Shown here one piece after another: positions 10,485 through 64,000 of a DNA stretch of 64,000 nucleotides. The first letter of the stretch is position 1. Each line of letters starts with the position of its first letter. The position numbers and the translations under genes were made by a program. The notes beneath the pieces are model-generated. The model had not been told where the DNA came from, ran no database searches, and saw only the letters and a list, made by a program, of their open reading frames with translations. Source of the stretch: Pseudomonadota bacterium (GTDB lineage: Bacteria > Myxococcota_A > UBA9042); NCBI GenBank assembly GCA_041163625.1, contig JBEARB010000253.1, forward strand, positions 11,034-75,033. The letters are read 5' to 3'.

Positions 10485-11129
10485 CTAGTCCGGGACCTTG
10501 CGCCAGTCGGCGAGGAAGCGCTCGAGGCCCAGGTCGGTCATCGGGTGCTTGAACAGCGCCTGCATGGTCGAGAACGGCATGGTGCCGACGTGCGCGCCCA
10601 TCTGCGCGGCCTCGAGGACGTGCAGCGGGTGACGCAGGCTCGCGGCGAGGACCTGGGTCTGGAAGCCGTAGTTCTCGTAGACCTCCAAGATCTCCTGCAC
10701 CAACTGCATGCCGTTGTGGCCGATATCGTCCAGGCGGCCGACGAAGGGCGAGATGTAGGTCGCGCCGGCCTTCGCGGCGAGCAGCGCCTGGTTGGCCGAG
10801 AAGCAGAGCGTCACGTTGGTGCGGATGCCCTCTTCGCGGCACCGCACGACCGCGGCGATGCCGGCCTGGGTCAGCGGGATCTTGACGATCACCTGCGGCC
10901 CCTCGGCCGCGAGTGCACGCGCCTCGGCCATCATTCCAGCGACGTCGGTCGCGGTGACCTCGAGCGAGACCGGGCCCTTGACCAGGGCCAGGATGTCGCG
11001 CTTGACGTCCTCGAAGCGGCGGCCGGTCTTGGCGACCAGGCTCGGGTTGGTGGTCACACCGTCCAGGATGCCCCAGGCGTGCGCCTGTTCGATCTCCGCG
11101 ATGTCGGCGGTGTCCAGAAAGAACTGCAT
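10485..11129 (-). CDS. tal: Transaldolase / fructose-6-phosphate aldolase family protein.
   Basis: 214 aa from the internal ATG 11129: [31 protein letters not shown]…KIPLTQAGI…FVGRLDD, canonical for short transaldolases (Fsa/TalC type). Confidence 0.85.
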
Positions 11130-16559: not shown

Positions 16560-18529
16560 ATGTCCGAACGAGCTCACCATGGCCCGTGGTCGCGGGTCGC
16601 GGTAGACACGGCCGCCGACACGGCGACCACCGACGCCGCAGCCAGTGACACCGCGAGCGGCACCTGCAAGGTCGCCGCCGATTGCCCGACGCCGACCGAG
16701 CCCTGCCTCGCCGCCGCCTGCCAGCCGGGCGTCGGCTGCTTGACGGTCCAACTCCTCGACGGCGCCTACTGCGACCCGGGCGACGATTGCCTGCTCGGCG
16801 GCGTCTGCGCCGTCGGCGTCTGCAAGCCCGGCGCCCCCCGCGACTGCGACGACGGCCAAGCCTGCACCGCCGACGGCTGCACGGACGGCGCCTGCACCCA
16901 CACGCCCGCGCAAGGCACGCCGTGCGACGACGGCGAAGCCTGCACGAAGGGCGATTCGTGCCAAGACGGCGCCTGCACCGGCCCGGACAGCTGCGTGCTC
17001 GGCGTCTGCAAGGGCGCCGCGATCGCCTGCGACGACGGCAACCCCTGCACCGACGACGATTGCGCCGCCGGCAAGGGCTGCACGCACACGCCCAACGCCG
17101 CGCCGTGCAAGGTCGACGTGCCCTGCCAGCCCTTGGGCGTGTGCACCGCCGGTGCCTGCGTCGCGCTACCGGCGCCGCTCTGGCAGGCCACCGTCGACGG
17201 CAAGGACGCCGAGACGCCGCAAGCAGTCGCTGCCGGCGCGGACGGTTCGGCTTGGTTGGTCGGTCGTGCCGTGGCATCGTGCTCGCGTGGCCCTTCGCCG
17301 ACGCCAAGACGCAGGGCGCCGCCGCCCGCGTCGTCGTCCGCGACCCGTGGGGCAACGTCGACTGCGCCACCCAGGGTGCCTGCGCCGGCTAGACCCTGGC
17401 CGACTGCGACGACGGCAACCCGTGCACCTTCGACGGCTGCAGCACCGAGCTCGGCTGCACCCACCAGGTCCACGGCCTCGCCTGCGACGACGGCAACGCC
17501 TGCACCACCGGCGAGGCGTGCACGGGCGGCGTCTGCCAGGGCGGCAAGCTGCAGGGCTGCGACGACGGCAACGTCTGCACCGACGACGCTTGCAACCCGC
17601 AGGTCGGCTGCACCCACGCGGCGAACGCCGCCGCCTGCGATTCGGGCAACTGCACGGTCGGCGACAGCTGCGCGGCGGGTCTGTGCAAGACCACCGGCGC
17701 CTCGCGCTTCGGCACCACCTTCCACGGCCAAGCGGGCGAGGACACCCCCACCGGCGCGGACGTCACGCCCGACGGCGGCGCTGTGATGGTGGGCGCGACG
17801 TACACCAAGCCCGATTCGGACGGCCTGCTGCTCCGCGGCTACGGTGCCGACGCGCGACTGCTCGCGCTGGACGGCGATGGCGACGTGGTCTGGCACGTCG
17901 ACTTCCGGGGCCAGGCCAACAACACGCCCGACTACTTCAACTCCGTGGCGGCGATGCCCGACGGCGGTGCGCTCGGCGTCGGATACACCAGCAACCCGGG
18001 GATTCGGCAGGTCTACGTGGGTCGCGCGAGCTCGAATGGCAAGTCGCTGTGGTCGCGCACCTTCGGCGGGGCAGCCGACGATATCGGACGAGGTGTCACG
18101 GTCCTGGCAAGCGGAGCGTTCACCGTGGTGGCGAGCAGCCTCTCGACGCAACCGGGCAACGGGGACGTGCTCCTGCGCGGCATGGATCCGATGGGCAACA
18201 CGCTCTGGGAGCGCGTACACGGCCTGACGACCGAGGATGTGCCGGCTGCCTTGTTGCGCCGGGCCGACGGCAGCCTGCTCGTGCCGGCCAAGGGGACCAA
18301 GCCCGGCGCGGCCGCCGCAGACGTCGCGGTATGGACTTTCGACGCTTGGGGTTATGGCAGCTGCAAGGACGCCGGAGGATGCGCTGCCATGCCCGCGACC
18401 GGCTGCGACGACACCAACGCCTGTACGGCGGACATCTGCACGCCGACGGGCTGCAGCCACACACCACTCACCGAGGGCGCTCTGTGCAAGCTCGGCAAGA
18501 CGTGCAAGAAGGGTAGCTGCTCGAACTAG
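16560..18529 (+). pseudogene. Disrupted gene for a myxobacterial Cys-rich repeat protein (frameshift plus in-frame TAG).
   Basis: GGAGGA sits 9 nt before ATG 16560. Reading frame 0 is protein-like up to ~17270 (repeats CxDGxxCTxDxCxxGxCxHTP). The coding then continues in another frame from ~17276 (…IVLAWPFADAKTQGAAARVVVRDPWGNVDCATQGACAG) to a TAG at 17390..17392. It continues immediately after the TAG without a start codon (TLADCDDGNPCTFDGC… to 18529). See findings. Confidence 0.5.
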
Positions 18530-25316: not shown

Positions 25317-28300
25317 ATGGCAGTCCTCGAGCGCATTCGCACCCTGTTCGGCACCATGCCACGCGGCCTCGGAGCCCTGGCGCTGGTGACCGCGATCGGC
25401 CTGTCGGCCTGTGCAGGCGAGTCCGGGAGCGACGCTGCAAGCGACGGCACCTGTGAGCCCGGCACGAAGGATTGCCTCTGCGCGACGGGCGCGGCGTGCG
25501 GCCCGGGCTTGTCCTGCGTCTCGGGGTCGTGCAAGGCCGGCGAGCAGGGTGCCCTGGGCATGGCCTGCTTCGCCAACATGACCTGCAATCCCGACGAGGA
25601 AGGCCGCGCGATGCTCTGCGTGGGCGGCGTCTGCCAGAAGGCGAGCTGCACGCAGGGCAGCGAGGGTTGCGGCTGTCTCGCCGGCGCGACCTGCGCCGCG
25701 GGGCTGACCTGCGACACCAGCACCGGTGCGGCGCTCTGCCAGAAGGCGGCCTGCGCGGACAACGTCGGCACGCTCGGCTGCGCCTGCGACGCGGACTACG
25801 GCTGCGCGGCGGGCCCGGGCGGTGCGGCGCTGGCGTGTGACGGCAAGCTGTGCATCTCGGCGATCTGCGCGCCGGGCACCGAGAACTGCTTCTGCGGCGA
25901 GAAGGCCACCTGCGCCTCGGGCCTGAACTGCGACGCCGGCACCTTCCGCTGTGTGAAGCCGAGCGGCTGCACCCAGGGCGAGTCGGGCTGTGCCTGCAAG
26001 GGCGACGGCAGCTGCATCGGCGACAAGCTGGTCTGCAACAGCAACGTCTGCGTGGTCGAGAACTGCCCGGCCGGCGAGATCGGCTGCACCTGCAAGGGCG
26101 ACGGCAGCTGCGCCGTCGGCGGCGACGCCCTGCTCGTCTGTCAGTCGGGCAAGTGCCTGCCCAAGGCGGGCTGCGCCGAGGGCACCCCCGGCTGCGCCTG
26201 CACCGCCACCGGCGGCTGCCAGGGTGACGGCTTCATCTGCGACAGCGGCACCAACACCTGCAAGGCGGTCTCCTGTGCCGCCGGCGCGCTGAACTGCGGC
26301 TGCAAGGCCGGCGCCACCTGCGACGCGGGCCTGGTCTGCGCGAACGGTCAGATCTGCGTCGACAACAAGGGCTTCCCCGGCGGTGCCTGCCTCGACGGCG
26401 ATCTCTGCAACGCCGGTGCGAAGTGCGACGGCGGCAAGTGCGCGACCTGCGCGCTCGGCAGCGAGGGCTGCGCCTGCTTCACCGGCGGCGGCTGCTTCGC
26501 CCCGCTGACCTGCCACCTCGGCAGCTGCGTCGCGCCCGGCAACTCGAGCACGACCGTGCCCGCTTCGCTCGACCCGCCGAAGGACGCGCAGTGCTGGACG
26601 CCCTGCAACCAGGGTGTGACCAAGCCCGACGGCACCTTCGTCGCGTGCGGCGCCGACGGCCTACTCCCGGGCTGCGTCGACGACCTGACCTGCGTCAAGG
26701 GCAGCTGCGTGAAGAAGGGCGACACGCCCGGCAAGTGCGAGACCGACCTGGACTGCGCCGAGCACCAGACCTGCTACCTCGCTGACGGCCACTGCTACTC
26801 GAACTGCAACGTCGACATGGACTGCGGCGACGGCGCGAGTTGCTACCGCCACGTCTGCCGCAAGACCTGCGACACCAAGGCGGGCTGCGACAAGGGTCAG
26901 TTCTGCAAGACGATCGACGGAGAGAACGGCTTCTGCATGCCGCTCGCGCCGCCGACCAAGTGCGAGGGTCCGCAGTGCGGTCAGAAGGCCGTCCTCGGTA
27001 GCTTCTCGCTGCAGGAGGACCAACTGAGCCTCTCGGACGCCAACGCGACCGGCCAGATCGTGGTCGACGTCGACAGCGCCTCGGAGACCTCGCTCAAGGT
27101 CCGCAAGGTCCGTCACTCGATGGTCGGCCAGGGCGGCGAAGAGGTGACCTGCGTCGCCGGCAGCAACAACTGCCCCTGCCAGCCCGGTGACGGCAAGGTC
27201 GTGCTCGCCGGTGTCACCTACTACTGCGACACCGCCAAGACCCCGCCGCTGCACTGGCTGAAGATTGGCACCAGCGACAAGCCCCTCGAGAAGGTGCAGT
27301 CGATCGACGTGAAGGTCGGCGCCGGCAAGACCAGCTTCACCCTGCTGCTGAGCACCGAGGGCGCCTCGCCCGCGCCGGCGTGGCAGGGCGTGGTCGAGAT
27401 CAGCCACCCGAACTACGGCGTCGGCGAGGTCTTCCTCTCCTACGCCGTGCGCCCGGACGGCCGCTGGATCGGCACCGCCTACTTCTTCGCCACCTTCGAG
27501 GACGAGGGCTTGGACAAGTGGCTGCTCAACCCGCAGGACTTCAACCTCGTCAAGAACGCGTTCGTGCAGCAGTGGCAGGTCTTCCGCAACCAGCCGATGG
27601 CCAACTACGAGATGATCAACGCGATGATGACCAGCGTCATCGACGAGACCTGGCAGTGGGAGAAGGTCCGCAAGGATTGCAAGAGCTTCGGCGAGAACGC
27701 CGCGTGCATCCCCTACGCCCCGCAGCAGCCCGGCTCGATCGGCGCCACCAGCGGCCTGTACAAGGTCAGCTCGGACTCGCGCACCATCCGGATGCCGAGC
27801 GGCGTCACAGAGCTGCCGCTCTCGTTCAACCTGAAGTCGACCGCCGACCCGACCCTGCTCACCGGCCGCATCACCACGGCCGACAGCTTGCAATACGGCG
27901 GCAACCCGTCGATTGGCGGCATCAAGCTCAAGCAGGATCCCGCCAAGGCCTGCACCGGCGGGCTGTGCGTCATCGGCGTGAGCGACATGAGCATCGACAT
28001 GGCGATCGGTGGTCGCTACGTCTCGAACAGCTCGGACACCACCTGCCAGGACATGCCGGCCGGTGCGTACGGCCACGTCGCGCTGCCGTGGTTGGTGCCG
28101 GGCTTCTTGGTCGGCACCGAGACCGACAACAAGACCAACACCGTCTACCGCTACGAGTGCCGTTCGAAGAAGGTGCCCTTCGGCGACGATCCGGCGCAGA
28201 TGGTCGCGAACATGACCTCGGCGGCCAGCAACCCGATCGCCGACGGCAAGCCGCGCAGCCGCACGCTGACGCTGCTCGACGGCGCGCTCATCAACCAAAC

Positions 28301-54757: not shown

Positions 54758-56995
54758 ATGAACGAGCGAATCGAGCGCCGCTTCGGGCGCGGGCTGGCCG
54801 TGCTCTTGGCGGCGACGTGCACGTTGGCCGCGGCGGGCTGCAGCGACGACGACGGCAAGGGCAGCGGCAACACGGCCGACACCGCCGGCGCCGACAGCGC
54901 GGGCGACGTGGCCGGCGACGCCGTCGGCGATGCCACCAGCGACGGCAGCGGCGACGGCGACGCGGTCAGCAACGACGCCGCCGATACCGTCGCGATCCCA
55001 CACGTCCTGGAGCTGCAGCCGACCGTCGCCAAGGCCGCGGTCGATCCCTTCGCCGGCGGCGGCACGACCTCGTGCGCGACCTTCCGCGACACCCGCTGCG
55101 AAGGCGGCAAGCAGCAGACCTGCGCCGTCTACGACACCGCCAAGGGCGCGTTTGCCGAGACGGTGCCGGCGCTGGTCGAGCGCGCCTACGACTACGACCG
55201 CTGGTTCGACCGCTTCAGCAGCCCCGACGGCACCGCCGCCGAGCGCGTCTTCCTCGCGCCGATGCCCGCCGAGGCGACCGAGGGCGTCTGGGGCGACCCC
55301 GCCGCGTTCGCGCGCTACGACGGCACCGGCGACGGCGCGATCTGGACCGGCGCGGCGCTGACCTCGGCGGCGATGCGCTACGCCACCACCGGCACCGCCG
55401 CCGACCGCGCCCGCATGGTCGAGATCACCGAGCACCTGCTGCGCCATTTCGACGTGACCGGCGTGCCCGGCTACCTCGCGCGCCATACCTTCCTGCTCGC
55501 GCCCGAGGGCTCGCCGCGCTACGACGCGCATATCGTCGAATACGGCGAGAAATCGGTCTCCGCGCGCGACGTGAAGGTGCGCGCGAGCGAGCTCGGTGTG
55601 CTGCCCGAGGTCTACGCCAAGGGGCTCCCGGACGGAAAGGGCGGCGTCATCGCGGCCGAGCCGATGTGGAACGGCAACCCCTCGATCGACCAATACACCG
55701 GCCCGATGATGGCGTTCCCCATCGTCTACGAGCTCGTCGACGACGCGACGCTGCGCAAGCGCATGGCCGACCACCTCGTCTGCTACCTGAACCGACTCAA
55801 ACGCGTCGAGATCATCCACCTGCAGCAGAACCCGCAGCTGCTCGAGTCGGTGACGGCGTATTTCGGCGGCGGCAACCTGCAGCTCGACCCGGGCGACCTC
55901 GACCCGGCCAAGCTCGACCGTGTCGTCGGCTACTACCTCGACGACCTGAACAGCGCCAACGTCGACACCTACGACCGCAGCTGCCCGAAGGCGCCGGCGA
56001 CCACGCCGACGCTGGTGCTCGACGCCGCCGACCCCGGCTTCCTCGGCGAGATGCTGCTCTTCGCCAACCGCGTCGCCGCCGGCAGCCAGAAGACGCCCAA
56101 CGCCGAGGGCATCGCGCACATGTACGTGCCCAACGTCCGCGGCGGCGACGCCGTGCACATGCTGCACCTCGCGGCGATGGCCTATCGCTTTACCGGCGAC
56201 GAGGTCTACCGCACCTTCTTCTTCGAGACGCTGATCGAGGAACTGCAGGCCATCCCGGTCGCGAATACGACGCAAGCCTTCCAGACGCCCGATTGGTGCA
56301 AGGCCTTCTACGGCGACCACATCACCTACACGACGATGTGGCAGTTCGCGACGATGCTGAAGCCCGGGCCGCTGCTCGACGCGATGATCGACGTGATGCA
56401 CACCGAGGAGTGGGACAAGACCCTCGAGCGCGCGCACAACGCGCAATTCGACGTGATGTACGCCTCGCTGATGCCCGACTCGGATCCACGCGACCGCGAC
56501 CTCGCCATCGCCGACGCCCAAGCCGTGCTCAAAGCCTTCGGCGGCAACGGCGGCGTGCTCTCCGGCCCGCGTCGGACCTACGGGATCGCGCCGCAGAAGG
56601 TGATCGACAACTTCCCCACCGGCACCACCCTCGCCTGCCCGAGCGAGGGCGAGCGCAAGAGCTGCGAGGAAGGCATCAAGGTCTTCGGCATCCAGCTCGC
56701 CGGTGAGTCGATCTCGCACGCCTGCGACGGTCGTCCCGGCGAGTGCAAGATGCAGGACGGCGCCTGCACGCAAGGCATGGCGAGCGAAGGCCTACCGCCG
56801 TCGCTGCGCGCCTACGCCGACTTCGCGTGGCAACGCAGCCCGTACCAGATCGGCGACGGCGGCGATGGCGGGCGCAAGCAATCGCCCGGCATGGACCTGA
56901 GCCAAGCGTTCTGGCTCGCCGCGCATTATGGCTACCTCGCCGAGGCGAAGGGGTTGGTGCTGGCTTGGAAGGATACGGGGACTTGCGACAAGTAG
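54758..56995 (+). CDS. Secreted lipoprotein (745 aa), possibly a glycan-active alpha/alpha-toroid-type enzyme; function unknown.
   Basis: MNERIERRFGRGLAVLLAATCTLAAAGCSDDDG has a lipobox and is followed by the D/G/S/A linker seen in other lipoproteins here. The remaining ~650 aa are a globular domain. Confidence 0.65.
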   Translation: MNERIERRFGRGLAVLLAATCTLAAAGCSDDDGKGSGNTADTAGADSAGDVAGDAVGDATSDGSGDGDAVSNDAADTVAIPHVLELQPTVAKAAVDPFAGGGTTSCATFRDTRCEGGKQQTCAVYDTAKGAFAETVPALVERAYDYDRWFDRFSSPDGTAAERVFLAPMPAEATEGVWGDPAAFARYDGTGDGAIWTGAALTSAAMRYATTGTAADRARMVEITEHLLRHFDVTGVPGYLARHTFLLAPEGSPRYDAHIVEYGEKSVSARDVKVRASELGVLPEVYAKGLPDGKGGVIAAEPMWNGNPSIDQYTGPMMAFPIVYELVDDATLRKRMADHLVCYLNRLKRVEIIHLQQNPQLLESVTAYFGGGNLQLDPGDLDPAKLDRVVGYYLDDLNSANVDTYDRSCPKAPATTPTLVLDAADPGFLGEMLLFANRVAAGSQKTPNAEGIAHMYVPNVRGGDAVHMLHLAAMAYRFTGDEVYRTFFFETLIEELQAIPVANTTQAFQTPDWCKAFYGDHITYTTMWQFATMLKPGPLLDAMIDVMHTEEWDKTLERAHNAQFDVMYASLMPDSDPRDRDLAIADAQAVLKAFGGNGGVLSGPRRTYGIAPQKVIDNFPTGTTLACPSEGERKSCEEGIKVFGIQLAGESISHACDGRPGECKMQDGACTQGMASEGLPPSLRAYADFAWQRSPYQIGDGGDGGRKQSPGMDLSQAFWLAAHYGYLAEAKGLVLAWKDTGTCDK

Positions 56996-57005
56996 GGCTG
57001 AGGCT
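56880..57005. repeat. Left copy of a ~126-bp direct repeat (the 3' end of the 54758..56995 lipoprotein gene).
   Basis: aatcgcccggcatggacctgagccaagcgttctggctcgccgcgca… reappears at 57914..58039 with about 6 mismatches. Confidence 0.85.
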
Positions 57006-57094
57006 GGCGCCGACGTGACGGCGCGGCGGGCGGTGCTGATCCCCCGTGGAGCTCGTGCTAGGCTGCACCGAGGCGTCGATCTCGGAGGTCGGTC

Positions 57095-57343
57095 GTGGAT
57101 GAAACGCGGGAGAACGGAGCGAAGCGGTCCCCGCAACCCGCGGTGGTGGACGGCATCTACTGCTTCGAGATCGAGCCCGGCGTCATCATCGATACGCGGC
57201 CCGGCGCGACACAGGACGAAGACGGGGTCGATATCTCGCTGATCGAGATGATGTTGCAGCTGACGCCGCGCGAGCGGCTCCGCACGGTCGCACAATGGAC
57301 CGCGCTGGCCGAGGCAGGAGGGGTAGCCCGTGGCGACGACTGA
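57095..57343 (+). CDS. Small (82 aa) protein; possible partner (antitoxin-like) of the downstream nucleotidyltransferase.
   Basis: GGAGG upstream. Non-repetitive, protein-like sequence. Its stop overlaps the GTG start of the next gene. Confidence 0.4.
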   Translation: MDETRENGAKRSPQPAVVDGIYCFEIEPGVIIDTRPGATQDEDGVDISLIEMMLQLTPRERLRTVAQWTALAEAGGVARGDD

Positions 57344-57815
57344 CCTCGACCGCTTGCTGACGGCGGTCATCGAGGGCGGCGTGGAGTTCGTGGTCGTCGG
57401 GGCTGCGGCGGCCGTGTTGCAGGGGGCGCCTCTCGGCACCCTCGACCTCGACATCGTTCATGCACGGACGCCAGAGAATGTGCGCCGCCTCAAGACGGTT
57501 CTCGACGAGCTCGGAGCCATCTACCGACATCAGCATGGTCGTCGCTTGGCCGCGCGAGAGGAGATTCTGCTCGGACCCGGGCACAACCTCTTTGCGACAC
57601 GTCTCGGTCCACTGGACGCCCTCGGCGCGCTGGACGGGGCGGATTTCGAGGTCCTGATTCCATTGTCGCGTTGGATCGACTACGGCGGCGCGCCGGTCCG
57701 TGTCCTCGGAATCGAGACCCTGATAGCGATGAAGCGCCGGGCGGGAAGACCGAAAGACTTGCTCGCGATCCCGATATTGGAGCGGATGCTCTCGATGGAG
57801 CTGCCCGACGAGTGA
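57330..57815 (+). CDS. Nucleotidyltransferase-fold protein (MNT/AbiEii-like, toxin-antitoxin-type).
   Basis: GTG start with a GGAGGGG RBS. VVVGAAAAVLQGAPLGTLDLDIV (G-x-n-DxD NTase motif) and C-terminal LIAMKRRAGRPKDLLAI. Confidence 0.55.
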   Translation: MATTDLDRLLTAVIEGGVEFVVVGAAAAVLQGAPLGTLDLDIVHARTPENVRRLKTVLDELGAIYRHQHGRRLAAREEILLGPGHNLFATRLGPLDALGALDGADFEVLIPLSRWIDYGGAPVRVLGIETLIAMKRRAGRPKDLLAIPILERMLSMELPDE

Positions 57816-57913
57816 CAGCGTCGGCACTGGAACTGGCGTGTCAGGACTTGACACTTGACATCTTTGCGGCGCCAAAGGCGTAAAGTATCCGGTCCTGATA
57901 GCGAATTCCAAAG

Positions 57914-58039
57914 AATCGCCCGGCATGGACCTGAGCCAAGCGTTCTGGCTCGCCGCGCACTACGGCTACCTCGCCGAGGCCAAGGGGTTGGTGCTGGCTT
58001 GGAAGGATGCGGGGACTTGCGAGAAGTAGGGCCGAGGCG
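57914..58039. repeat. Right copy of the direct repeat (a diverged duplicate of the lipoprotein gene's 3' end including the stop).
   Basis: It encodes …SPGMDLSQAFWLAAHYGYLAEAKGLVLAWKDAGTCEK*. The differences from the left copy are mostly synonymous or conservative (T->A, D->E). Confidence 0.85.
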
Positions 58040-58139
58040 GGCACGCTAGTAACGAATTCTTGACTTTTGCTGTGTGCTGGTAAAGGATTCGTATCTCGTC
58101 GGCGTCCGTGGGCACGCGACCTTGACCACCGAGTGCGCC

Positions 58140-59318
58140 ATGTCGAATCGAGAGACGGGACGGTACGAGCGCACATCGACTGGCGGTGAGCAGGTTCGCG
58201 CCTTCGTGCCCCACGCGTTGCCTCCTGCTGACCCCGCGATTGTCATCGGGAGCCGACTGGCGGAGCGGGTGCGTGCCGCGGAACAGGCTCTCGTGCGGCT
58301 CGAGTTGGCCGGTGAGATGGTTCCCTCACTCGACTGGTTGATTTACGCCTTCGTGCGCAAGGAGGCGGTGCTTTCCTCCCAGATCGAGGGGACGCAGGCG
58401 ACGCTCATGGACCTCCTCAACTACGAGGCGGAAAGGAGTCCGCCCCTGCCGAACGCGGACGTCGAGGAGGTCTGCAACTACCTCGACGCGCTGACCTTCG
58501 CCCGGGCGCAGCTCAGCGACCCATCGGGGCTGCCACTCTCGATGCGCCTGCTCAACGAGACCCATCGGCGCTTGCTCCAAGGCGTCCGCGGTGAGAACAA
58601 GCTGCCGGGGCAGGTACGCCGAAGCCAGAACTGGATCGGAGGCAGCCGCCCGGGCAACGCGGCCTATGTGCCCCCGCCGCCGAATGCGCTCGCCGACGTG
58701 CTCTCGGCGTTCGAGCGGTACATCCATGCCGACGACGAGCTCCCGCCGGTGGTCCGAGCGGGTCTGCTCCACGTGCAGTTCGAGACGATCCACCCCTACC
58801 TCGACGGAAACGGGCGCATCGGACGCTTGCTCGTGACGCTGCTGCTGGAACATTGGCGCCTGCTCACGCGCCCGCTGCTCTACCTGAGCCTGTTCTTCAA
58901 GCGCCATCGGCAGGAGTACTACCGGCGGCTCGATGCCGTGCGAGTCGACGGTGATTGGGAAGCCTGGCTGGATTTCTTCCTCGATGGCGTGGCGACGATC
59001 GCTGACGAAGCCGTCGCGACCTCACGCGACCTCTTCTCGCTGGTGACCGCCGACCGGCAGCGCGTCATCCACCACACAAGCGTGAACCTGCTCGCCGTGC
59101 AGCTCTTCGAGCGGCTACCGAGTCGGCCCATCGTGAGCACATCTTGGGTCGTCGAAGCGCTGTCGACCACCAAGCCCACCGCCGGCCGTGCCATCGAGGC
59201 GCTCGAAGCCGCCGGCGTCCTCGTCGAGACCACTGGCAAGAAGCGCGACCGCGCCTATGTGTACCAGGCGTACCTCGACCGACTGCGCGCCGGGACCGAG
59301 CTTGGAGATGACGGCTGA
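58140..59318 (+). CDS. Fic family protein (Fic domain plus C-terminal winged helix).
   Basis: HPYLDGNGRIGRLL matches the Fic motif HPFx[DE]GNGR. The ~392-aa length and layout are typical. Confidence 0.8.
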   Translation: MSNRETGRYERTSTGGEQVRAFVPHALPPADPAIVIGSRLAERVRAAEQALVRLELAGEMVPSLDWLIYAFVRKEAVLSSQIEGTQATLMDLLNYEAERSPPLPNADVEEVCNYLDALTFARAQLSDPSGLPLSMRLLNETHRRLLQGVRGENKLPGQVRRSQNWIGGSRPGNAAYVPPPPNALADVLSAFERYIHADDELPPVVRAGLLHVQFETIHPYLDGNGRIGRLLVTLLLEHWRLLTRPLLYLSLFFKRHRQEYYRRLDAVRVDGDWEAWLDFFLDGVATIADEAVATSRDLFSLVTADRQRVIHHTSVNLLAVQLFERLPSRPIVSTSWVVEALSTTKPTAGRAIEALEAAGVLVETTGKKRDRAYVYQAYLDRLRAGTELGDDG

Positions 59319-59561
59319 CCTGACGGCGGAGTCAAAGCACCGAGCCAAGGGCAAAGGTGTTAGGTGCCTGGTCCTGACACCGAATTACTGACACCGTACC
59401 TCAATTCCGCCGCTCGGGTGGATCAGCTTCTACCCGGATGCCGCCGATCACGCGTGGCTCCTTCCGTCAATGATCACGGCCGGTCTGGGATCTTGCGATC
59501 GCCGTGGAAAATTCTCCTTGACTTGGACAATACGGCGGCAGACAGTCCAACTATCGCAACC

Positions 59562-59597
59562 AGCGGCTCCGCAGCAACCAGCGGCTCCGCAGCAACC
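59562..59597. repeat. Perfect 18-bp tandem duplication immediately upstream of ATG 59608.
   Basis: agcggctccgcagcaacc x2, preceded by a partial caacc. Confidence 0.8.
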
Positions 59598-59607
59598 AGG
59601 GGTGCCG

Positions 59608-60402
59608 ATGGCCACGCAACCGAAGCCAATCTTTCTCGCAACCGACGTGGAGCTACAGACCCTACCCGACGGCGCTGCGGTCATCCACTGGGCGCCACGC
59701 GAGACGTGGTCGGCTGGCAACGGTGCCCGGTTCTACACCGTCTACTACCAAGTCCTTCAGAACAGCGACGCGACGAACAACACCGTGCGCGTGCGTCTAC
59801 AGGGTAGCGCAGACGGCAAGAGTTGGGTCAACATGGACGACCTGCCGCTGGAGTTCGACGACATCGACAACGCCACCAACCTTGAGGCCACGACCTACTG
59901 GCCGAGTGAGTTGCTGCGTGCCGCGCCTTTCCTCCGCTGGGGTCTGGAGATCGAGAACGGCGCGGGCAGCTTGGGCACTGCACGCGCAACAGTGGTCGTT
60001 GTGCCGTGGTGGACGGACATGGACATCCTCCGCACCGTGCTCGCGCAGAACCAGGCGCTGGAGACGGCCACCGGCACGACGTACGAACTCGCGAACTCCT
60101 CGCTGAACCTGCTCGGCTTCACCAGCGGTGCGCTGCACGTGCAGACGTCTGGGGTGACCGGGGGGTCGACGACGTTCTCACTCTTGGCGAGCATGGACGA
60201 TCCCGATGATCCCGCGGCGGTCTGGGTGCCGGTTCCCAGTTCGCCGACGCTGGTGCTGGACGCCACGACGACGGCCGGTGCATTGCTGTTCAGTACCCAA
60301 GCGGGCATGTCGTTTCGTGTGGCCTACGTCAACACCGTCACCCTTACGGGCACGCCGGTCGTGGATTGGGTTCGGGTGCTGGCGCGCCGCGTGGGCGGCT
60401 AG
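59608..60402 (+). CDS. Hypothetical beta-rich protein (265 aa); the alternative start at 59470 would add a PQQPAA repeat N-terminus.
   Basis: Track ORF 59470..60402(+). Reduced GC (~60%). No recognisable motif and no signal peptide. Confidence 0.5.
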   Translation: MATQPKPIFLATDVELQTLPDGAAVIHWAPRETWSAGNGARFYTVYYQVLQNSDATNNTVRVRLQGSADGKSWVNMDDLPLEFDDIDNATNLEATTYWPSELLRAAPFLRWGLEIENGAGSLGTARATVVVVPWWTDMDILRTVLAQNQALETATGTTYELANSSLNLLGFTSGALHVQTSGVTGGSTTFSLLASMDDPDDPAAVWVPVPSSPTLVLDATTTAGALLFSTQAGMSFRVAYVNTVTLTGTPVVDWVRVLARRVGG

Positions 60403-60603
60403 GCGGCCTGCCGATGTTCGGTCTACCGCTCGGCATGATGCGTAGTCCGCGCAGTCACAGCGCCGGCACGAGATGTAGAGCGCGTCGTCGGAGGTCCGCC
60501 CGGCCACTGAAGTGGCGGGCTATCTTTGCGCCGTTCGCCCTCGCGGACGGCAACACAGGGCTCAACGTCAACCGCACGCGCTGTCAGTTTGTGGGAGGTC
60601 CGC

Positions 60604-60933
60604 ATGACCACGGAACGTGAACTTCCATCCAGTACCGCCACGAGCGACGTTGGCGGAGAGCCGTGTGAGTTGGAATTGCGGATTCGAGCAGTATTGGGGG
60701 GCGTGAATCCAGGGCTCCATGAAATGGAGGCCCGCGATGCGTTGATGGCGATTCACGAACTCGCAGGCCTCTGCATTGCCGAGAGGCCCGACGAGGTCGG
60801 GCGGATCGCGCCGTGGTTGTCGGAGGTGGTACTCACCGATTTGCAATCCGACATCGAACAGGCGAGCGATTCCACAGTATTACTCGGATTGCAGATCGTC
60901 AAATCGACTCTGCAGGGACGGGAGACAGAATGA
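60604..60933 (+). CDS. Hypothetical small protein (109 aa).
   Basis: GGGAGG sits 6 nt upstream of ATG 60604. The stop overlaps the next start (ATGA). Confidence 0.5.
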   Translation: MTTERELPSSTATSDVGGEPCELELRIRAVLGGVNPGLHEMEARDALMAIHELAGLCIAERPDEVGRIAPWLSEVVLTDLQSDIEQASDSTVLLGLQIVKSTLQGRETE

Positions 60934-62318
60934 TCGAACTTCTTATCAAGGTCATTGCAGCACTACTCAATGGCGTGTCGCGGTACCGATCGTTCGTGTA
61001 CAAATCTGCCAATGGCGCGTCATGGGAAGTTCTGTTTCGCTTTGAGAACGATCCCAGCGACGAGCGATACGGCGGGGGGTTGGCGCTGCTTAGTGCGCGC
61101 TTCGCCCTCAACACCGACACTATGCAACTGTCGAATATTTCTCCCGTCTCATACGTTCAGTTCACCACATCTCGGACCACCTACTTCACCAGGAATGCAG
61201 CTGGTCCGGATTCGGTCTCCGTGGAAAGCCCCCCACTCCTTGATGGAATGGGTAAGCCGTATGGCGGAACCGCAGGCGGGGTGCGGTTGCTGCCGCGGCC
61301 TTGGCTTGTTTCAAACGGCGCAAACCCTAAAGCATTCGCGATGGGCGGCAAAGAGCAGGCCGCAATCGAAGCGTCAATGAAGTCCGACCCCACGACTCGG
61401 CCAGTAGCCAAGGATGTCGTCGCGATCCATGTACTGGTTCCCCAAGACTCGACATCAAACTTTCCGATCGGAACGGTTCAGTTCGATGTTCGTGCCCGCT
61501 TTCAGGCTGCAAACTACCAGTTCGTCTCCGGGTTTCGCTTCTTCGACAATGGCGTCATTGAGCCCTACGTCTCTGCAACCGGAGCGACACTCCCATCAGT
61601 CGATGGGCCCACACTCCCGGTCGATTCGCGGGCGAAGGTTCATCTTCACGACTTCTACCTGTGGTATCTGCTCGACTCCAGTTCAATGGTTGGACCGCAC
61701 ATACGCGCACAAACTATCCGGCTGGACCATGAAGGTGCTCTCCCCTACTTCGTGCACTCTGAGGTAGGCACGTTCAAGACACTAGGCGAGAACCCATGGC
61801 CAATCGTTGAAGATGAGACTATCACTGGCCATCTCGTGGGCCTTCGTCTGCTGAAGAACCTTGATCTCGACTTGCTTCTGAAAGAAGGAGAGGAACTACC
61901 CGGCACCTGGGCTTGGCTCGAACAGGAGAAATGGGGCGTGATCATCGACTGGCAGCACGACGACATGTCGGATGTAAAGGACTACTTGGCCGAATGGTCA
62001 ACCTACACCGATCAGGGGTGGCGTGCGCTACTTCGGGCTGTCAAGTTCGACGGAGACGCGGCCCGATTTATTGCCAAGGTGGCCAATACAACGCACGCAA
62101 TTCAGGTCTCGCCTGGCGATCAAACGGCAACCGGCGCAAAATCTCTTGCCTCGGGCATGGATGTTTTGGGCTGCTTGCGCCTATATCACCTACATCTTCC
62201 TTCCAGACCTGACGCGAACCTTACGCCGCTCCGCAGCGTTTGGTTCGCAATTCGCCCTCGTGTGTGGCCTAAGACGGCGTATTTCGACGCAGTGTACAAG
62301 GATGTGAACAAGCAATAG
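60930..62318 (+). CDS. Hypothetical protein (462 aa), translationally coupled to the previous gene; ~55% GC.
   Basis: Internal ATG 60930 of track ORF 60813..62318, with GGGAG upstream. MIELLIKVIAALLNGVSRYR…; I recognise no family. Confidence 0.55.
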   Translation: MIELLIKVIAALLNGVSRYRSFVYKSANGASWEVLFRFENDPSDERYGGGLALLSARFALNTDTMQLSNISPVSYVQFTTSRTTYFTRNAAGPDSVSVESPPLLDGMGKPYGGTAGGVRLLPRPWLVSNGANPKAFAMGGKEQAAIEASMKSDPTTRPVAKDVVAIHVLVPQDSTSNFPIGTVQFDVRARFQAANYQFVSGFRFFDNGVIEPYVSATGATLPSVDGPTLPVDSRAKVHLHDFYLWYLLDSSSMVGPHIRAQTIRLDHEGALPYFVHSEVGTFKTLGENPWPIVEDETITGHLVGLRLLKNLDLDLLLKEGEELPGTWAWLEQEKWGVIIDWQHDDMSDVKDYLAEWSTYTDQGWRALLRAVKFDGDAARFIAKVANTTHAIQVSPGDQTATGAKSLASGMDVLGCLRLYHLHLPSRPDANLTPLRSVWFAIRPRVWPKTAYFDAVYKDVNKQ

Positions 62319-62338
62319 CAGGGGCCATTGGGGGGCAC

Positions 62339-64000
62339 ATGGCTATCCACTATCGAGTTTCTCCACTTCGAAGCCTCGCAACTATCGCCCTAACTCAGAT
62401 TCTAATTGGGTGTGGCGACGGAGGAGCGGGCGAGAAGGCAACCGCAAACGTAGCTGTGAAATGTGAGTCGGGTAGTGCAAAACTGCTGCGTTCTCAAGCG
62501 ATCCCGACGGCATGTTCCGCCACAGATCGAAAGAATGCGGGAGCGTTGGGTCCTCTCGTTGAGAACGAAGGTCTATGGTACCAAGGGCAGCAATGGTTTC
62601 ATTACCGTCAAGGATGCCGATCCTTCGAGGCCCGCCCGTCGGAGGACACAAGCGAGCTGATTGTCGAAGAGTTCGAGTCCGGGGAACCAAGGATCGTGCG
62701 AAGAGAAGTTGGTCGACTCCCGTTGCAGCGCCGCTCGGTGAAGTTTGCGCCCGGGGCTGGCGCTTCAAGCTACTTCGGCATGGGCTCGTATTCCCTGCCG
62801 GTGGTGATTCGCCTCTCTGCGAACACCGTCCTCCTGCCTCTCTGCCGTGTGTTCGGTTCACATGACGCGCCGAGCAACCGTTTCGACTTCGTCGGCCAAC
62901 AGTTCGTGGTGATTGATCATGGATCGGACCCTCCAGCGCTTCGGGAAGTTAGCGGCAAGGGTCTGGAGTTCGATGGAATTTGTGTGAGCGCCGTCGGCGT
63001 ACGAGACGGAGTCGCATCCGCGCTGTTGGCGATTCAGGTTCACCCGGATACTCCGAGCGCCGAGGCTGCTCCCCCCAGCGGAGGCACGCTGCACGGACTC
63101 CATGTCGATATCGTTCGTGTTGAACGAGCGGGAACGGAATTCGTCGCCAAGCGCTTGGGCGTGTTGCCGCCCGCGTGGAAGGACGTGCGAGCGATTTCGC
63201 GCCGGGGCCAGGAAGCGCTTCTGGTAGGCTACCGTAGCAAGAGTGACGACACGACTGTTGTTGGGCCGGAAGCCAAGTCCATCTCGCTCACATTGAAGTT
63301 CGCTGCGCTCCGATCATCAGGTGACTTGGTTGAGATTGGGGCTGGGTCTGAGGGGACCTGGCAAGTGAATGCATTGATGCGCTGCACAGACCCAGCATGG
63401 TTCTGCGGCTACGAAATAGGTCCAACTTTCGCGGGGTCGGCAGTTGGCAAGGGGAGCCTCAAACTGAACCTCCGCAACGAGCTTCGTGTTCATGCAAGGA
63501 GTGTCCAGGCAGCCTCTGCCGAAGTTGGGCAGGTTAACGAAGGGCATGTTGGCTTCCTGACAAGGGCAGAACAGCAGTTTCCCCAAGGATTTCACGCTTG
63601 GGATGCAGTGACCCCACCTGTGGCGACGGCCGACCCCGGGAAACTTGACGCATGGCTCGAACCCGGTTGCACTAGGACAAATTCCTACTTTTTCCAGCCA
63701 GTCACCTTGCCCTCGGGAGAGCTCCTCCTCTTCGCTGTTGTGCGGGCCAAGCCCGAATCATGCTCCGGCGTGTTTGCCATCCGGATGACTCACCACGGTT
63801 CGATTCGGTGGCTAAAGCGCTTGCCTCTCTCAGCGAGCACGGCCTGGGGCGAAATCCGCTACGTCCCGGAGGTGGACGCATCCGGCTTCGTATGGTGGGG
63901 GCCGACCTCCTTTCTTGCGCCGTTCGCGGTCACCGACCCGGTCGACATTTCCGCATGTGGCGGTCTCGGCTGGGACGGCTGCAGCGACGGCAACGCCTGC
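62339..64000 (+). CDS. Lipoprotein, partial (3' end beyond the window).
   Basis: My own translation from ATG 62339 gives MAIHYRVSPLRSLATIALTQILIGCGDGG (lipobox). The frame is open to the window end and finishes …ACGGLGWDGCSDGNAC. It is not in the ORF track because no stop falls inside the window. Confidence 0.5.
   Translation, partial: MAIHYRVSPLRSLATIALTQILIGCGDGGAGEKATANVAVKCESGSAKLLRSQAIPTACSATDRKNAGALGPLVENEGLWYQGQQWFHYRQGCRSFEARPSEDTSELIVEEFESGEPRIVRREVGRLPLQRRSVKFAPGAGASSYFGMGSYSLPVVIRLSANTVLLPLCRVFGSHDAPSNRFDFVGQQFVVIDHGSDPPALREVSGKGLEFDGICVSAVGVRDGVASALLAIQVHPDTPSAEAAPPSGGTLHGLHVDIVRVERAGTEFVAKRLGVLPPAWKDVRAISRRGQEALLVGYRSKSDDTTVVGPEAKSISLTLKFAALRSSGDLVEIGAGSEGTWQVNALMRCTDPAWFCGYEIGPTFAGSAVGKGSLKLNLRNELRVHARSVQAASAEVGQVNEGHVGFLTRAEQQFPQGFHAWDAVTPPVATADPGKLDAWLEPGCTRTNSYFFQPVTLPSGELLLFAVVRAKPESCSGVFAIRMTHHGSIRWLKRLPLSASTAWGEIRYVPEVDASGFVWWGPTSFLAPFAVTDPVDISACGGLGWDGCSDGNAC

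Follow-up and report, generated by a model that had tools for sequence, protein, structure and literature searches.

What does a run of low-GC genes near the end of a stretch of metagenomic DNA encode, and do its members belong together? The question is raised by a 64,000-nt stretch of DNA (the window: positions 11,034 to 75,033 of contig JBEARB010000253.1) from a metagenome-assembled genome (MAG) deposited as "Pseudomonadota bacterium". A first-pass annotation, read from the letters, had marked three co-oriented genes there, A, B and C, as a block of unknown function with no evident catalytic motif and as a candidate for an undescribed system; in the NCBI annotation A (RIT45_3155) and C (RIT45_3157) are hypothetical proteins. 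Our analysis revised this picture in two respects. The block has four genes rather than three, as a further gene, D, follows C, and C does contain a catalytic motif set, namely the cofactor and metal motifs of the copper amine oxidase type. Protein C is probably a genuine, though very remote, homologue of the catalytic (supersandwich) domain of copper amine oxidases, as judged from Pfam matches, PDB profile searches, profile-profile alignment with hhalign, invariant residues, their spacing and fold searches.

Protein C and the copper amine oxidases

Relatives of C are extremely scarce. A word-index search of 5.8 billion clusters returned one protein of 97% identity (P0001), one of 61% identity (P0002) and a frameshifted fragment (P0003). 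When 1.84 billion representatives were searched exhaustively by HMMER, P0004 (31% identity, E 7e-24) was the sole addition. A profile search for further C-family members added none, and a scan of one genome per species across 185,579 species added one, encoded at locus L020 of a MAG labelled Myxococcota by NCBI (26% identity). In all, the C family amounts to about five clusters of sequences out of roughly 15 billion proteins. The fragment (P0003/P0011, on a JGI contig of 2039 nt) is a copy of C that is 99% identical over the first ~154 residues and then runs out of frame; this may reflect a pseudogene with a frameshift or, alternatively, a fault in the assembly of a single metagenome.

In canonical copper amine oxidases, the tyrosine of an Asn-Tyr pair is converted into the topaquinone (TPQ) cofactor. 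Three stretches of C, 'FQAANYQF', 'VHLHD' and 'YHLHLPSRPD', recall the active site of these enzymes by eye; they hold N195-Y196, H238-L-H240, and H420-L-H422 followed by P..PD, all of them invariant in the family. When the five C-family members were compared with Pfam, PF01179 (Cu_amine_oxid) was the sole match for each, at profile positions ~139-183, the TPQ site. The highest score was obtained for P0004 (26.8 bits, E 3.2e-6), followed by L020 (17.2 bits), C of the window (12.4 bits, E 0.072) and P0002 (11.8 bits), with E values reaching 0.1 at the weak end of the family. A PDB profile search with the C family gave nine weak matches at E <= 10. The top rank was held by an unrelated porin (E 0.061); five of the nine were copper amine oxidase sequences, all matched at the TPQ site, among them the Hansenula enzyme (E about 0.08) and human diamine oxidase (E 0.89).

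A profile of four diverse C-family members was then aligned segment by segment with a profile of eight diverse copper amine oxidases, i.e., E. coli tynA and seven genes from plasmid records (six bacterial, one archaeal), using column shuffles as controls. The TPQ segment reached a score of 35.5 (E 2.8e-7, hhalign probability 93%), which none of 60 shuffles attained. The C-terminal segment, in which LRLYHLHLPSRPDANLTPLRSVWFAIRP is aligned with WMTTGTTHVARAEEWPIMPTEWVHTLLKP around the third copper histidine, scored 19.4, and all 120 shuffles stayed below this value (maximum 19.1). For the N-terminal segment ('DGMGKPYGG' against 'GGMIVPYGDPD') the score was 16.1 and was equalled by one shuffle in 60, and in the HxH segment HLHDFYLWYLLD and 'HQHIYNFRLD' of the oxidases stand in register with two copper histidines.

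The same residues stand out within the family. Although its sequences are only 26-62% identical, N195, Y196, H238, H240, H420 and H422 are among the invariant positions, and these four histidines are the sole invariant ones. H238, H240 and H422 align in register with the three copper ligands of copper amine oxidases. From the tyrosine to the HxH motif there are 33-43 residues in the C family and 49-58 in copper amine oxidases; from HxH to the third histidine the distance is 160-184 against about 160 residues, and from there to the C-terminus 24-40 against 37-54. The spacing of the C motifs thus appears to be to scale with that of real copper amine oxidases. The TPQ region of C (FQAANYQF..F..nGvIE..v..TG) resembles in particular that of the Hansenula enzyme HPAO (FTAANYEY..F.qdGaI....ltG), and the third histidine of C lies in the H-x-(x)-x-x-x-(P/E)-D context of the oxidases.

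An AlphaFold2 model of C, built from four family sequences without templates, is of low confidence (predicted local distance difference test, pLDDT, 38; predicted template modelling score, pTM, 0.46; pLDDT 27 with a three-sequence alignment). When this model was compared by Foldseek with 350,542 PDB chains, the best 50 matches were all copper amine oxidases (best E 5e-3, TM 0.27), and these enzymes came first in both fold searches of the model; in a viral fold library it had no match. Galactose-mutarotase-like supersandwich proteins share no sequence similarity with C and lack its N-Y and histidine motifs.

Several observations nevertheless weigh against the assignment. No C-family member reaches the gathering threshold of PF01179 (27 bits), and C of the window stays far below it. 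The statistical similarity to copper amine oxidases is confined to short segments: HMMER detects the TPQ segment only, the N- and C-terminal parts of C not rising above shuffles, and the HxH segment taken alone is not significant (37 of 60 shuffles scored as high). The cofactor consensus T-x-x-N-Y-(D/E)-(Y/N) is answered in the C family by Q-A-A-N-Y-(Q/L)-F, so that the residue after the tyrosine is Q or L in place of D/E, and the next is F in place of Y/N. The catalytic-base Asp upstream of the cofactor (D383 in E. coli, D298 in the Arthrobacter enzyme AGAO) lies in an f-D-x-G-e-Y-G motif; no Asp of C aligns with this motif in forced global profile alignments, which are unreliable in that region.

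The closest known proteins are the copper amine oxidases (PF01179; E. coli TynA, Arthrobacter AGAO, Hansenula HPAO-1, Pichia lysyl oxidase PPLO), which have 620-760 residues, whereas C-family proteins have 405-462. No match to Cu_amine_oxidN2 or N3, the N-terminal D2/D3 (N2/N3) domains, was found in C, and there is no room for them, because C has 462 residues in total and its tyrosine already stands at residue 196. While E. coli tynA adjoins feaB and feaR in an amine-catabolism cluster, C is encoded in a mobile four-gene operon. With its sub-threshold scores, missing D2/D3 domains, altered TPQ flanks and lack of an alignable Asp, C is not a canonical copper amine oxidase.

These deviations would also suit a protein that has lost the oxidase chemistry and serves as a beta-sandwich scaffold or binding protein with a metal site, the block then forming a surface or structural assembly without a redox role. 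The lack of an alignable catalytic base and the Q or L after the tyrosine point that way, as do weak matches to discoidin, a carbohydrate-binding domain, in relatives of A (see below). However, the invariant N-Y pair and both HxH motifs sit exactly where copper amine oxidases have their cofactor and copper ligands, and the fact that they are kept at 26-31% identity speaks for a functional active site; we consider a purely structural C improbable. As to an oxidase-like C, its motifs leave the chances of topaquinone formation or copper binding about evenly divided.

The four genes and their linkage

As first annotated, A, B and C are co-oriented on the plus strand, and the start codon of C (ATG, 60930-60932) overlaps the stop codon of B (TGA, 60931-60933) in the sequence ATGA, by which B is predicted to be translationally coupled to C. 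The strong ribosome-binding sites (RBS) reported earlier were found again as RBS-like purine runs before each start (AGGGG for A, GGGAGG for B, GGGAG for C). D has the same orientation and starts at 62339, 20 nt past the stop codon of C. Position 59470, given before as the start of the block, is merely the first ATG of a longer open frame, and the sequence ahead of 59608 shows no conservation in L018 or L006, two other loci with A-like genes. A starts at 59608 and encodes 264 residues, not 265. The GC content of ~55% ascribed to the whole block fits C (0.559) and, approximately, B (0.582), but not A (0.652); D has 0.60 and a neighbouring host gene 0.697. At third codon positions (GC3) the values are 0.83 for A, 0.66 for B, 0.62 for C and 0.63 for D, compared with 0.94 for the host gene. 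Along the window, GC is ~70% until roughly 57 kb and 0.56-0.65 thereafter. Compared with a divergent allele of the block (locus L001), the ratio of nonsynonymous to synonymous substitution rates (dN/dS) is lowest in A (0.05) and C (0.10) and higher in B (0.30) and D (0.32). As all values are below 1, the four genes are under purifying selection and the open reading frames (ORFs) are real genes.

The order A-B-C-D was observed in three lineages, i.e., the window type (L003, L004, L005, L022, L023), L001/L002 and L006/L007, and D comes after C in all three (within the window type, in L003, L022 and L023). The order is retained even in L006, where the identity of C falls to 31%: an A-like protein matches the N-terminal 70 residues of A there (E 3e-10), and a D-like protein matches the C-terminus of D (E 2e-15), while the 152-aa protein at the place of B has no detectable similarity to B. 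The proposed linkage of the genes was thus found elsewhere, but not everywhere. Downstream of the A homologue in L018 (78% identity) lies an unrelated pair of genes, coupled by ATGA and encoding 73 and 312 aa (L018 1162-2318), with no similarity to B or C and no family matches; a C-like nature of the 312-aa protein was rejected by comparison with C. The C-like gene of L020 is accompanied by neither A nor B nor D; its 158-aa neighbour was compared with A and rejected as A-like. Read from these sequences, A-B-C-D appears to be a real and very rare four-gene accessory operon in which linkage is not obligate. The L018 pair suggests A as a conserved anchor for alternative modules of a small and a large gene. 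A further A-like gene (54% identity; L021 81-1312) is broken near its 3' end by an IS3-family transposase orfA (HTH_Tnp_1, E 5e-13).

Could the block then be no unit at all, with A an independent conserved gene and B-C-D, or only B-C, an unrelated cassette inserted downstream? The step in GC3 between A (0.83) and the other three genes (0.62-0.66), the separate occurrence of A in L018 and of C in L020, and a mosaic breakpoint at the stop codon of A (see below) are in line with this, and A and B are parted by a gap of 201 nt with a GC-rich hairpin (-22.7 kcal/mol). The hairpin, however, does not stand out from shuffles in its folding (z -1.65), nor is it conserved in L001, and it is the deeply divergent L006 in which an A-like gene precedes C-like and D-like genes in the same order. 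We regard two unrelated units as somewhat unlikely, but A may be a separate, more conserved module.

Searches with the single proteins (Pfam, NCBIfam, PHROGs, PADLOC, PDB) gave nothing usable beyond the weak copper amine oxidase match. None of A-D exceeds the curated threshold of any Pfam or NCBIfam family, none has a significant PHROG match (two matches at E 0.02-0.04), and neither A, B, C and D nor their L006 counterparts matched PADLOC-DB 2.0 at E <= 0.1. When plasmids were searched by tblastn with C, D and the 312-aa protein of L018, and phages with A, no matches were obtained, and a scan of viral contigs for A yielded none. The view of an undescribed system holds in a weaker form: the block matches no described system, none of its proteins enters a curated family, the C family is extremely rare and the genes lie in an island with defence and toxin-antitoxin (TA) genes, but C, as a remote homologue, falls within the wider copper amine oxidase superfamily.

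Protein A is acidic (pI 4.4), contains no cysteine and has no signal peptide. Its relatives P0006 and P0007 show weak F5_F8_type_C (discoidin) matches (E 0.05-0.13), and its two halves share a '(Q)xSxDG..W' pattern and align weakly with each other (E 0.085). A probably consists of two tandem jelly-roll, discoidin-like binding domains, which is reasonable but unproven. A double-jelly-roll capsid protein, with the island as a virus-like element, was considered and rejected, there being no PHROG, phage or viral matches and no genes for packaging or replication. An 18-nt tandem repeat, GCAACCAGCGGCTCCGCA, lies in the leader shortly before A, and about four copies of it are present in the L018 leader (~200-270). 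It is in frame with the open upstream frame (PAAPQQ repeats), is probably untranslated and may be a regulator-binding or a slippage-prone array; the leader repeats fold no better than shuffles.

Protein B is likewise acidic (pI 4.4) and, with 49% identity between alleles, the fastest-evolving protein of the block. No homologues of B were detectable beyond this locus type, and a PDB match to a designed repeat protein was dismissed as a low-complexity helical artefact. The B-C pair resembles type II toxin-antitoxin and chaperone-effector pairs in that a small acidic gene overlaps a larger downstream gene by ATGA and varies with it as a unit. It differs from type II toxin-antitoxin pairs as C is far larger than typical toxins and oxidase-like, and B has no DNA-binding or known antitoxin domain.

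Protein D carries the lipobox LTQILIGC (LIGC) and 19 cysteines, and its C-terminus forms a Cys-rich module that resembles Dicty_CTDC (28.5 bits in L003); D is predicted to be an exported Cys-rich lipoprotein. Its L006 homologue has repeat-like 'DG' motifs that by eye suggest a beta-propeller. Cys-rich repeats of the type C-x-D-G-N-x-C-T-x-D-x-C are typical for secreted proteins of Myxococcota-like bacteria, although the MAG bears the NCBI label "Pseudomonadota bacterium"; the C-terminus of D has one module of this type. Large arrays of them occur in host genes of the window (16770-17611, 25660-26513 and 32100-33280), and modules of the same kind as the C-terminus of D recur elsewhere in the window (repeat families D4-D6 and D15). 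In L020, a 651-aa neighbour of the C-like gene contains eight Dicty_CTDC repeats.

Allele exchange in a cassette island

The window-type locus L003 (3087-7843, corresponding to 59566-64000 of the window and beyond) was compared with L001 in windows of 100 nt. Gene A is 97-100% identical at the nucleotide level up to its stop codon. Directly thereafter identity drops sharply to 50-75% across B, C and about three quarters of D, and it returns to 93-100% over the last ~300 nt of D and the boundary repeat that follows; the N-terminal ~75% of D thus varies between alleles and the C-terminal ~25% is identical. The synonymous divergence (dS) between the window and L001 is 0.067 for A, 1.46 for B and about 3 (saturated) for C, which is a contrast of more than 20-fold between A and B or C. 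Given these identity breakpoints, the dS contrast and the GC3 step, B-C-D (with the N-terminal part of D) is exchanged as one low-GC allele cassette beside a near-invariant A, by recombination in conserved flanks. Mosaics of this kind are typically seen where a locus is under diversifying or balancing selection.

B-C-D might be a polymorphic effector-immunity cassette, serving inter-bacterial antagonism or kin discrimination. C would then be a delivered oxidase toxin, B its chaperone or a cytoplasmic immunity protein, D a lipoprotein of the periplasm or surface with the part of immunity protein or receptor, and A an adaptor to a conserved delivery apparatus. The sharp breakpoint at the stop codon of A with identity restored at the 3' end of D, the dS contrast, the different coupled small and large pair behind A in L018, and the lipobox and 19 cysteines that place D outside the cytoplasm all fit these roles. 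Yet secretion-system genes were not found in the 64-kb window, whose upstream part holds housekeeping and ABC-transporter genes; A could not be matched to any known family of adaptors, an immunity protein of the size of D would be very large, and the alleles known number two to three. We consider such a cassette a rather doubtful explanation.

The block is part of an island that extends from about 57009 to about 64315 (~7.3 kb) and contains only a TA-like pair, a gene for a SoFic-type Fic/DOC protein and A-B-C-D (Table 1). The insertion site is the 3' end of a host lipoprotein gene, and ~113-134 nt of this 3' end are repeated after each cassette. The internal boundary between the TA-like cassette and SoFic consists of a palindrome, about 55 nt of conserved sequence and the second repeat copy, and the same arrangement (GTGTCA-N5-TGACAC, about 55 nt, repeat) follows D in L003, L001, L022 and L023, the distal repeats lying at L022 3892-4081, L003 7650-7812 and L001 4418-4627. 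L022 and L023 are 99.97-100% identical to the window (L023 is 100% identical over the shared 4,091 nt). The extent of the island, including its distal limit, was read from L022, which is of the same strain and in which a truncated third repeat copy is followed by high-GC host-like DNA.

Table 1. Features of the island and its left flank, in window coordinates.
Feature	Position	Strand	Size	Basis or remark
Host lipoprotein gene	54758-56995	+	745 aa	Insertion site at its 3' end
Direct repeat copy 1	56875-57008	+	134 nt	Last ~120 nt and stop codon of host lipoprotein gene; left island boundary
TA-like pair	57095-57815	+	82 aa (57095-57343) and 161 aa (57330-57815)	ORFs; overlapping
Palindrome GTGTCA-GGACT-TGACAC	57838-57854	+
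Internal cassette boundary	57838-58042	+		Palindrome, about 55 nt conserved sequence, direct repeat copy 2
Direct repeat copy 2	57909-58042	+		93% identical to copy 1
SoFic-type Fic/DOC protein	58074-59318	+		PADLOC SoFic E 6e-112; Pfam Fic_N, Fic; NCBIfam SoFic model
Tandem repeat GCAACCAGCGGCTCCGCA	59556-59599	+	18 nt, 2.4 copies	TRF; leader just upstream of A
Gene A	59608-60402	+	264 aa	ORF list
Gene B	60604-60933	+	109 aa	ORF list
Gene C	60930-62318	+	462 aa	ORF list
Gene D	62339-64000 (cut by window end)	+	595 aa in L023	Lipobox, Cys-rich C-terminus

The boundaries resemble att-type ends of cassettes accreted at one site, in an island that has no recombinase gene; no integrase was found inside it or in the 16 kb upstream. 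An integron gene cassette array was rejected, as intI is absent and the repeats copy the 3' end of the lipoprotein gene rather than being attC sites beside intI. The host genes upstream encode a radical S-adenosylmethionine (SAM)/B12 protein, a pyridine-nucleotide disulphide oxidoreductase, MacB/FtsX permeases, a LolA-like protein and an ABC ATPase. Rfam gave nothing over 56500-64000, a sigma-70 promoter scan yielded no sites, and a terminator scan yielded one, within gene D, which is fewer than shuffles predict. The order of the cassettes is variable: behind D, L001 has first the boundary element and next SoFic.

The 161-aa protein of the TA-like pair is nucleotidyltransferase-like (weak DUF2204/DUF6036 matches). 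The pair is absent from L003, which is 97-98% identical; 57031-57837 is replaced there by 190 nt of unrelated DNA (L003 1133-1322), a strain-level turnover of cassettes at one site. The SoFic protein probably starts at ATG 58140 and has 392 residues, as called in L003. It is the immediate upstream neighbour of A-B-C-D on the same strand, and no other part of the island has a function in defence that has been described, but it shares no homology with A-D, and neither L006 nor L020 carries it. SoFic is described as a Fic-domain AMPylating, single-gene anti-phage defence protein (PMC12249575). L006 has a second TA-type neighbour for this operon type (L006 462-1108): A-B-C-D is preceded by a ribbon-helix-helix (RHH, CopG-like) antitoxin gene and an overlapping gene for a 138-aa protein, the N-terminus of which is PIN-like by eye and without a Pfam match.

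From these surroundings, A-B-C-D might be a new anti-phage defence system in which A or D senses infection and B releases C, whose oxidase activity, through H2O2, aldehyde or depletion of polyamines, aborts the infection. The narrow content of the island, the antitoxin-like and 138-aa genes before the distant L006 locus, the low GC, patchy distribution and allele exchange of the block, and the coupled layout of a small B before a large C, reminiscent of antitoxin-toxin pairs, would agree with it. Against this stand the lack of significant PADLOC or PHROG matches for A-D and the absence, among the papers searched, of any that connects copper amine oxidases with anti-phage activity; the association is known from two contexts, the L020 locus has no defence neighbours, and an exported, Cys-rich lipoprotein of 595 aa would be unusual in an abortive-infection system. 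A role in phage defence as such is unlikely, on our assessment.

A possible role in conflict

The explanation that best combines these results is that A-B-C-D is a mobile accessory operon with a copper-amine-oxidase-like protein C and a role in conflict, and we give it about an even chance of being right. C would bind copper, would probably depend on a quinone, and would oxidise primary amines, whether free amines, polyamines or peptidyl lysine, to aldehydes, with H2O2 and ammonia as further products. B, being small, acidic and co-translated with C, could be its chaperone or inhibitor, and A, with its tandem jelly-rolls, together with D, as a surface lipoprotein, could bind or present the target or the trigger. 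The role itself would most likely be one in conflict, either phage defence or inter-bacterial antagonism; this part is suggested by the island context and the allele mosaic and by nothing else. What probability defence and antagonism leave over is shared by other accessory roles, a structural role without catalysis, and an A that functions separately.

Some points count against this combined explanation. Whereas D is exported, a signal peptide is lacking in A and C, which leaves a physical partnership unproven; A has other partners in L018 and C stands alone in L020; and no link of copper amine oxidases to anti-phage function or defence, experimental or in the literature, was found. The most specific version, in which A-B-C-D is an undescribed conflict system, its effector a minimal copper/quinone amine oxidase curbed by a co-translated acidic partner and its specificity diversified by swaps of B-C-D beside the invariant A, would on present evidence seem unlikely.

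The C family is known from a handful of metagenome contigs, and statements on function go beyond the homology by inference. Through its homology to copper amine oxidases, however, the chemistry of C is now open to testing. If active, C would be smaller and more divergent than any copper amine oxidase known so far, consisting of the catalytic domain alone and departing from the consensus at its cofactor site, and would bear on the question which residues the self-processing of topaquinone really needs. If the operon is a module of defence or antagonism, it would add an oxidative, copper-dependent type of effector to the known repertoire and, should the conflict role be true, would be the first case of copper-amine-oxidase chemistry in prokaryotic immunity or antagonism. 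The invariant A with its exchangeable B-C-D, and the island that accretes cassettes without an integrase, are examples of the shuffling of accessory modules in Myxococcota-like genomes.

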